A stretch of DNA of 64,000 bases from Escherichia phage E26, in the sequence record MN655998.1, one strand, 5' to 3'. The first letter of the stretch is position 1; each line of letters opens with the position of its first letter. This document shows, piece after piece, positions 53,751-54,167 of this stretch. The notes under the pieces were generated by a model that was not told the origin of the DNA, did not search any database, and was given only the letters and a program-made list of their open reading frames with translations. Both the position numbers and the translations under genes were made by a program.

Positions 53751-54167
53751 TTAGAGAGATTCGGTAAAGGTACGCGCGATAACGTCACGCTGCTGGTCTG
53801 GAGTCAGACTATTGAAGCGCACTGCGTAACCAGAAACGCGAATTGTAAGCTGCGGGTACTTCTCAGGATGTTCAACCGCGTCCAGCAACATTTCTCGTAA
53901 CAATACGTTAACATTCAAATGCTGACCACCTTCGACAACCGGAGCACCATTATCTACAATAACAGGACGGAAGCTAGTTGTGTGCAGTTCCAGAGAATCG
54001 ACGTCTTCTGCGGTGATCACATGGTCTTCTGCGAAAGTTTTACTAACAATTACTTTAGCGCCGATCAGTGCTTTCGGTTCGGATACCAGAATCATAGGCG
54101 CGAAGTGTCCACCAATAATAGTACCTTTATGCTCACCTTTCATGATTTGAATTGCTTTAAATTCCAT
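53751..54167 (-). CDS. grcA: autonomous glycyl radical cofactor (GrcA/YfiD-like)
   Basis: C-terminus [10 protein letters not shown]...[38 protein letters not shown], nearly identical to enterobacterial GrcA as remembered. Confidence 0.85.

Follow-up and report, generated by a model that had tools for sequence, protein, structure and literature searches.

RESULTS

The vs.6 locus in an RB49-like phage

We analyzed a 64,000-nt stretch of the genome of Escherichia phage E26 (MN655998.1), referred to here as the window. The 2 kb around the gene under study are 97.7% identical to phage RB49 and 90 to 99% identical to 58 phage records, which places the window in an RB49-like Krischvirus, a T4-type coliphage. 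The open reading frame (ORF) of interest (Table 1) is the ortholog of RB49 vs.6 (RB49p099), which is annotated there as a conserved hypothetical protein. Orthologs in phage kaaroe and others are labeled "autonomous glycyl radical cofactor", and the T4 RefSeq genome lists vs.6 as a 120-aa ORF annotated GrcA. Homologs are widespread, being present in 1,580 phage records, and a comparison of annotations revealed that the order regB...vs.6...vs.8, in the early region, is common to T4, RB49, and the window. An earlier note on this DNA, made from the sequence alone, stated that T4 carries a homolog of YfiD, and it does: the protein is Vs.6, also called Y06I, and it has been characterized. The gene in the window is therefore already known, since its relatives are annotated as GrcA and its T4 ortholog was characterized in 2001.

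Table 1. Features of the vs.6 locus and of the anaerobic ribonucleotide reductase (RNR) genes in the window.
Feature	Positions	Strand	Description and basis
nrdG (NrdD activase)	32521-33030	minus	TIGR02491, 165.9 bits (cutoff, 126.1); RB49 annotation
nrdD (class III anaerobic RNR)	34427-36289	minus	Pfam NRDD, E = 2.8e-175; NCBIfam NrdD above cutoff
nrdC.11	52966-53664	minus	RlaP-type nucleotidyltransferase; Pfam PF10127, E = 3.7e-14
Intrinsic terminator	53707-53741	minus	10-bp stem AAGCCAATCC/GGGTTGGCTT, 5-nt loop, T-run
vs.6 (grcA-like) coding sequence	53751-54167	minus	138 aa plus stop; ATG-to-TAA ORF
C-terminal glycyl radical domain module, residues 77-138	53754-53939	minus	Pfam, alignments, Foldseek
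Codon of radical glycine Gly113 of vs.6	53829-53831	minus	
N-terminal half of vs.6, residues 1-76	53940-54167	minus	Phage-type signature and insertion of about 14 residues
Shine-Dalgarno sequence AAGAGGTGA	54171-54179	minus	Strong; 3 nt before the vs.6 ATG; read from sequence
41-aa ORF, upstream of vs.6	54178-54303	minus	ORF list; no Pfam domain
vs.8, upstream of the 41-aa ORF	54303-54788	minus	ORF list, RB49 annotation; no Pfam domain

The neighbors of vs.6 are nrdC.11, the 41-aa ORF, vs.8, and a gene for an M15 endolysin. Packing of vs.8, the 41-aa ORF, and vs.6 is tight, with a spacing of 10 bp and an overlap of 1 bp, and the three genes are probably co-transcribed. The hairpin at 53741-53717 and the T-run after it, just 3' of vs.6, are kept in RB49, JK32, and FL20 and are already annotated as a terminator in phage GEC-3S; this terminator closes the unit of vs.8, the 41-aa ORF, and vs.6. 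A scan for sigma-70 promoters returned 11 candidates where shuffled sequences gave 8.1 ± 3.2, and we claim no promoter. Elsewhere on the minus strand (55269-57447) lie about eight small ORFs of 54 to 88 aa, tightly packed or overlapping, very hydrophobic, and resembling membrane proteins; in RB49 they carry only hypothetical-protein annotation.

A GrcA-type glycyl radical module

The C-terminal part of the vs.6 product matches GrcA far above chance. Aligned with E. coli K-12 GrcA, it agrees at 56 of the last 62 positions and at 55 of the last 60, which bears out the near identity that the earlier note had put forward, including the loop RVSGYAVRF. Low identity on an actual alignment, which that note had named as the observation that would speak against it, did not appear. 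Direct alignment of the same module gave 54/62 with T4 Vs.6 and 50/62 with both PflB and TdcE. Pfam Gly_radical matches residues 77 to 119 (E = 1.5e-16), and among NCBIfam models GrcA TIGR04365 (IPR011140) scores best, at 134.8 bits. That is less than its equivalog cutoff of 170, and the GrcA2 and GrcA3 models are likewise below their cutoffs; for TIGR04365, the shortfall is due to the divergent N-terminal half with its insertion. Among structures, the best PDB match is YfiD/GrcA 6owr (E = 2e-33, residues 37-138 against 29-127), followed by pyruvate formate-lyase (PFL; E = 5e-27, residues 77-138 against 698-759). A Foldseek search with the predicted model also ranked 6owr YfiD and the PFL structures 2pfl and 1cm5 at the top.

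RVSGYAVRF occupies residues 110 to 118, with the radical glycine, Gly113, in a PFL-type RVSGYAV loop. This loop is invariant in 43 homologs, and the glycine lies about 26 residues from the C terminus. Across those homologs there are 26 invariant columns, all of them inside the module and all kept in the window protein. From its sequence, the predicted product of vs.6 is an autonomous glycyl radical cofactor of the GrcA/YfiD type, as proposed before.

In comparison with the full-length enzymes, the window protein lacks the catalytic barrel and Cys418/419 of PflB and TdcE and corresponds to the detachable radical domain alone (PflB residues 698-759). It reads REMLLDA, as do PflB and TdcE, where GrcA has RETLEDA. 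Like E. coli GrcA/YfiD, it is a small standalone protein; the two agree at 90% of the C-terminal 62 residues and share the glycyl loop and the C terminus TFTESL.

A phage-type N-terminal half

Unlike the module, residues 1 to 76 are only about 33% identical to E. coli GrcA (alignment score 6) and 43% identical to T4 Vs.6. They contain the signature K-A-x-Q-I-x-x-G-x-H-K-G-T-I, which we regard as phage-type. T4 Vs.6 has it too. It is carried by 48 of 120 database homologs and by 32 viral loci, and it was absent from all 79 bacterial ORFs that were scored, 76 of which show the NSFWLL type. The TIGR04365 and 6owr profile alignments start only at residue 37. A possible homology of this half to that of YfiD shows in IQI, AR-x-IV-x-K, and ED motifs, in an alignment that is itself weak. 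The window protein is longer in this half than E. coli GrcA and the T4 ortholog (138 aa versus 120 aa in T4), owing to the insertion of about 14 residues. Overall, the two phage proteins are 58 to 66% identical and agree in synteny, except that the gene downstream of vs.6 is nrdC.11 in the window and vs.5 in T4.

An AlphaFold2 model of vs.6 (mean pLDDT, 78; pTM, 0.46) places four beta-strands and one helix between residues 4 and 69 (pLDDT, ~81 to 87). A fold search with the N-terminal region returned no significant structural match, and KOW-like matches with E > 0.6 were disregarded. In YfiD, by contrast, the N terminus (residues 1 to 60) is disordered in solution (PMC8683613), so a partly beta-structured N terminus, as predicted here, might bind cleaved PFL differently.

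Age and origin of vs.6

The earlier note took the high identity to GrcA as a sign of acquisition from a host. The nucleotide sequence points the other way. Over its 62 codons, the module shares 73.7% of its nucleotides with E. coli grcA and 74.2% with the 3' end of pflB, and the same codon is used at 24 of the 56 residues that are identical to GrcA. By the Nei-Gojobori method, synonymous sites are saturated in the comparison with grcA (pS = 0.77), whereas pN is 0.096. The best match among 5,426 E. coli genomes was 76.8% over 185 nt, to pflB, with nothing higher. Among the grcA loci of 80 bacterial species, the best nucleotide identity was 79.0%, and no block above 90% was found. As a positive control, the same comparison gave 95.7% between T4 and E. 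coli grcA, which indicates that the method does detect host-derived blocks. Pasteurellaceae GrcA (55/62) is about level in protein with E. coli GrcA, so protein identity shows constraint and names no donor or host. Part of the earlier host assignment stands: the host is E. coli, as follows from the 97.7% identity to RB49 and not from vs.6 itself.

Composition, like the protein identity itself, could be read as a trace of capture. The GC content of vs.6 is 45.3% against 40.7 ± 2.2% for the phage, and the excess sits in the module, where GC is 48.9% and GC3 is 48.4% against phage values of 40.7% and 37.6% (z = 3.8 and 2.3). The codon-usage comparison suggested earlier also found the codon preference of the module to be less phage-like than average. 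Yet E. coli grcA and pflB have a similar GC content over these 62 codons, so amino acid and codon constraints of the domain explain the excess equally well. Recent capture of vs.6, or of its 3' module, from an enterobacterial host would also have precedent, since T4, RB69, and other sister lineages evidently received an E. coli grcA block. Even so, low nucleotide identity, saturated synonymous sites, the phage-type N terminus, and synteny with T4 together argue against it, and we regard it as highly improbable for the window gene. We conclude instead that vs.6 is an old gene of phages, passed on vertically and held under strong purifying selection. Recent host capture was rejected by comparing nucleotides and synonymous sites with E. 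coli and with the 80 bacterial species, T4 being the control.

Probable exchange of the module in related phages

The T4 gene appears to differ from the window gene in its history. The 3' part of T4 vs.6 (L006:3390-3572) matches E. coli K-12 grcA (L004:4070-4255) at 178 of 186 nt, compared with 74% for the window, and uses the same codon at 57 of 59 positions (dS = 0.08). This block begins at the GGQH codons and ends just short of the stop codon, similarity dropping sharply on both sides. T4/RB69-type copies carry such a block at 95 to 99% nucleotide identity to E. coli grcA, and 629 phage records show this level of identity. It looks as if the host gene had recently converted the phage module and nothing beyond it. 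Two reviews of the T4 family (one of them PMC2988022) do not mention vs.6, and we found no published account of the T4/E. coli block.

Krischvirus relatives with N-terminal halves 86 to 99% identical to that of the window protein have modules identical to its module at only 39 to 53 of 62 positions. In Shigella phage JK32, nt 1 to 200 of the gene are 98 to 100% identical to the window gene, nt ~205 to 417 are ~62% identical (pS = 0.80), and nrdC.11, downstream of the divergent module, is again 96.7% identical. The 5' boundary of the module lies near the breakpoints of both comparisons, T4 with E. coli and JK32 with the window. In nine Krischviruses (JK32, FL20, and seven others), a 594-bp ORF with NUMOD4 and HNH_3 domains directly follows the vs.6 terminator, and in those nine genomes the divergent 3' module is always linked to this ORF, with sharp or mosaic boundaries. 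The divergent module and HNH region (JK32, L091:2700-3558; FL20, L172:2200-3056) correspond to 53686-53963 of the window. In the FL20 module (L172:2290-2330; alignment columns ~113 to 150), about 40 central nt are of the window type and the flanks are of the JK32 type, a patchwork that indicates repeated recombination between the two alleles. JK32 carries a second endonuclease-like ORF (L091:1242-1817), with HNH_3 and a weak, sub-threshold AP2 match, between vs.8 and the M15 endolysin gene, where a spacer of just 62 bp (54789-54850) separates the two genes in the window.

Intronless homing with co-conversion has been described for the T-even endonucleases SegF, SegG, and MobE (PMC2988022). By analogy with such free-standing Seg and Mob homing endonucleases, the HNH-linked modules of the nine Krischviruses fit a free-standing homing endonuclease acting with co-conversion or target-site immunity, and the HNH endonuclease may have the window-type module as its target for cleavage. 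Unlike these phages, the window has no endonuclease gene at vs.6, nor does RB49, and the window represents the "empty" allele.

Other members of the family were found more widely. The module of Klebsiella phage JD18 is most similar (87.6%) to Pseudocitrobacter among the 80 bacterial loci, a set without a K. pneumoniae representative. Phage T5 (T5.056; L174:417-785) and about 35 T5-like loci in IMG/VR encode a 122-aa homolog among tRNA genes. It has an N-terminal type of its own, beginning MKAYQNLKSGVIN, and its module is only 70 to 73% identical in nucleotides to E. coli grcA, pflB, and tdcE, which makes it a further old phage branch of the family. ORFs beginning MHGRDQKGAVASLTSVAKLPF on two viral-classed IMG/VR contigs (L132 and L152) are 3' ends of bacterial pflB, not of the GrcA type, and are probably host flanks or mis-binned sequence.

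Position relative to the anaerobic RNR genes

The earlier note placed the gene beside the anaerobic RNR genes. It is not: nrdD is 17.5 kb and nrdG 20.7 kb from vs.6, with about 42 annotated genes (by RB49) in between. The adjacent nrdC.11 is unrelated to RNR, its relatives sometimes being mis-annotated as "glutaredoxin nrdC" or "thioredoxin", and its name may be the source of the supposed adjacency. The accompanying proposal, an adaptation to anaerobic or microaerobic conditions together with nrdD and nrdG, survives in part. Because both genes are present in the same genome, such a role for vs.6 is reasonable.

Physical linkage does occur in other phages. In Aeromonas phage phiWae14 (L008:2373-5375), nrdD, nrdG, and grcA are contiguous, and the start of grcA overlaps the stop of nrdG by 4 bp. 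Among 80 IMG/VR viral loci, five (L102, L119, L123, L135, and L171) have the grcA homolog within about 1 kb of nrdD or nrdG, with a gap to nrdG of 9 bp in L171; these clusters are mostly on phage contigs of 233 to 357 kb. The other 75 loci have neither nrdD nor nrdG within 10 kb of the grcA homolog. From their gene order, the nrdD-nrdG-grcA clusters suggest a functional unit of a PFL spare part and an anaerobic RNR, in which NrdG is possibly the activase of the grcA product.

DISCUSSION

We consider it likely that the vs.6 product, the Krischvirus version of T4 Vs.6 (Y06I), is a phage-encoded "spare part" for the PFL of the host. YfiD and Y06I are the only validated proteins of this kind (PMC8683613, PMC13450708). 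Activated PFL is cleaved by oxygen at Gly734 (Wagner et al. 2001, summarized in PMC8683613). The small protein then binds cleaved PFL, which requires its own N-terminal half as well as PFL residues 696 to 733 (PMC8683613, PMC13450708). The host activase PFL-AE places the glycyl radical on YfiD or Y06I, whose C-terminal domain fills the PFL active site and restores catalysis (PMC8683613). Since the window protein keeps the invariant residues and its predicted structure can be superposed on YfiD and PFL, this mechanism is the best supported one for vs.6. Oxygen-cleaved host PFL would be bound by Vs.6, PFL-AE would introduce the radical at Gly113, and the C-terminal domain would restore catalysis. 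Under a T4-type host shut-off, neither the 85-kDa PflB nor host GrcA would be made again, and a 15-kDa phage-encoded domain would be the cheap, and the only, way to maintain PFL in microaerobic, gut-like conditions.

A running PFL would supply acetyl-CoA and ATP along with formate. Formate is the reductant of class III RNRs of the NrdD1 subtype, including those of E. coli and T4 (PMC4493059). The formate could in turn serve as reductant for phage NrdD/NrdG, and Vs.6 would thereby support dNTP synthesis. We offer this link between Vs.6 and NrdD/NrdG as a hypothesis, given that neither the window nor 75 other viral loci have nrdD or nrdG close to the grcA homolog.

The same RNR genes invite a different assignment, in which the vs.6 product would serve phage NrdD, itself oxygen-labile, as a spare part and not host PFL. 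The phage encodes NrdD and NrdG, the RVSGY loop is also found in NrdD, grcA adjoins nrdD and nrdG in several jumbo phages, and reviews allow for spare parts that serve further glycyl radical enzymes (PMC8683613, PMC13450708). However, the module is 81 to 90% identical to PflB and GrcA, beyond RVSGY it has no similarity to the C terminus of the window NrdD, which bears a Zn-ribbon, and T4 Y06I complements PFL (PMC8683613). We rejected this assignment on sequence, RVSGY being all that the module and the C terminus of the window NrdD have in common, and we give it hardly any credence.

If the target is host PFL, the radical could still come from phage NrdG, instead of or besides PFL-AE, allowing rescue without the host activase. 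NrdG is homologous to PFL-AE and gives a weak match to TIGR02493 (PFLA), RVSGY is common to both glycine loops, the overlap of the grcA start with the nrdG stop in phiWae14 suggests translational coupling, and the two genes are nearly contiguous in L171 as well. Against this, PFL-AE suffices for Y06I (PMC8683613), and in the window nrdG is far from vs.6. Activation by NrdG is thus an unlikely variant of the spare-part role, though a less remote one than repair of NrdD.

The relatives of the window phage raise a separate question. Close relatives that infect E. coli tolerate very different modules (39 to 53 of 62 residues identical), with changes such as RISGYAT, or NAGHH for EGGQH, which would be odd if they were constrained only by a perfect match to a single host PFL. 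Such altered modules might bind without supporting catalysis, and the window module is equally close to TdcE and PflB. A protein of this kind could be a decoy or modulator that competes for PFL-AE or occupies PFL/TdcE and so redirects host fermentation. For the window copy, we think this very unlikely: it keeps the catalytic glycine and every one of the 26 invariant positions, its pN/pS is low, and the T4 ortholog restores activity. Service as a spare part for PFL therefore stays our preferred reading.

A broader reading, which we entertain only tentatively and judge less likely than not to be right as a whole, joins exchange and function. The module would be an exchangeable cassette, repeatedly gene-converted, that also keeps up PFL formate for class III RNR. 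Its donors would be host grcA in T4/RB69-type phages and an HNH-linked divergent allele in some Krischviruses, and the window copy would be an endonuclease-free, cleavage-sensitive allele. PFL would provide formate for the phage RNR after host shut-off, as the nrdD-nrdG-grcA operons of jumbo phages hint, perhaps with NrdG as activase.

In itself, the identification of vs.6 brings nothing new. What the locus does illustrate is that, where a domain is under tight constraint, a high protein identity gives no evidence for recent capture or for the identity of the host. The nrdD-nrdG-grcA clusters of other phages make the hypothesis of a path from PFL through formate to anaerobic RNR testable. The part that deserves follow-up is the cassette-like behavior of the module, and the side findings may matter more than the gene itself, namely, an apparent host-to-phage conversion of 180 nt in T-even phages and an allele of a metabolic gene that is linked to a putative homing endonuclease.
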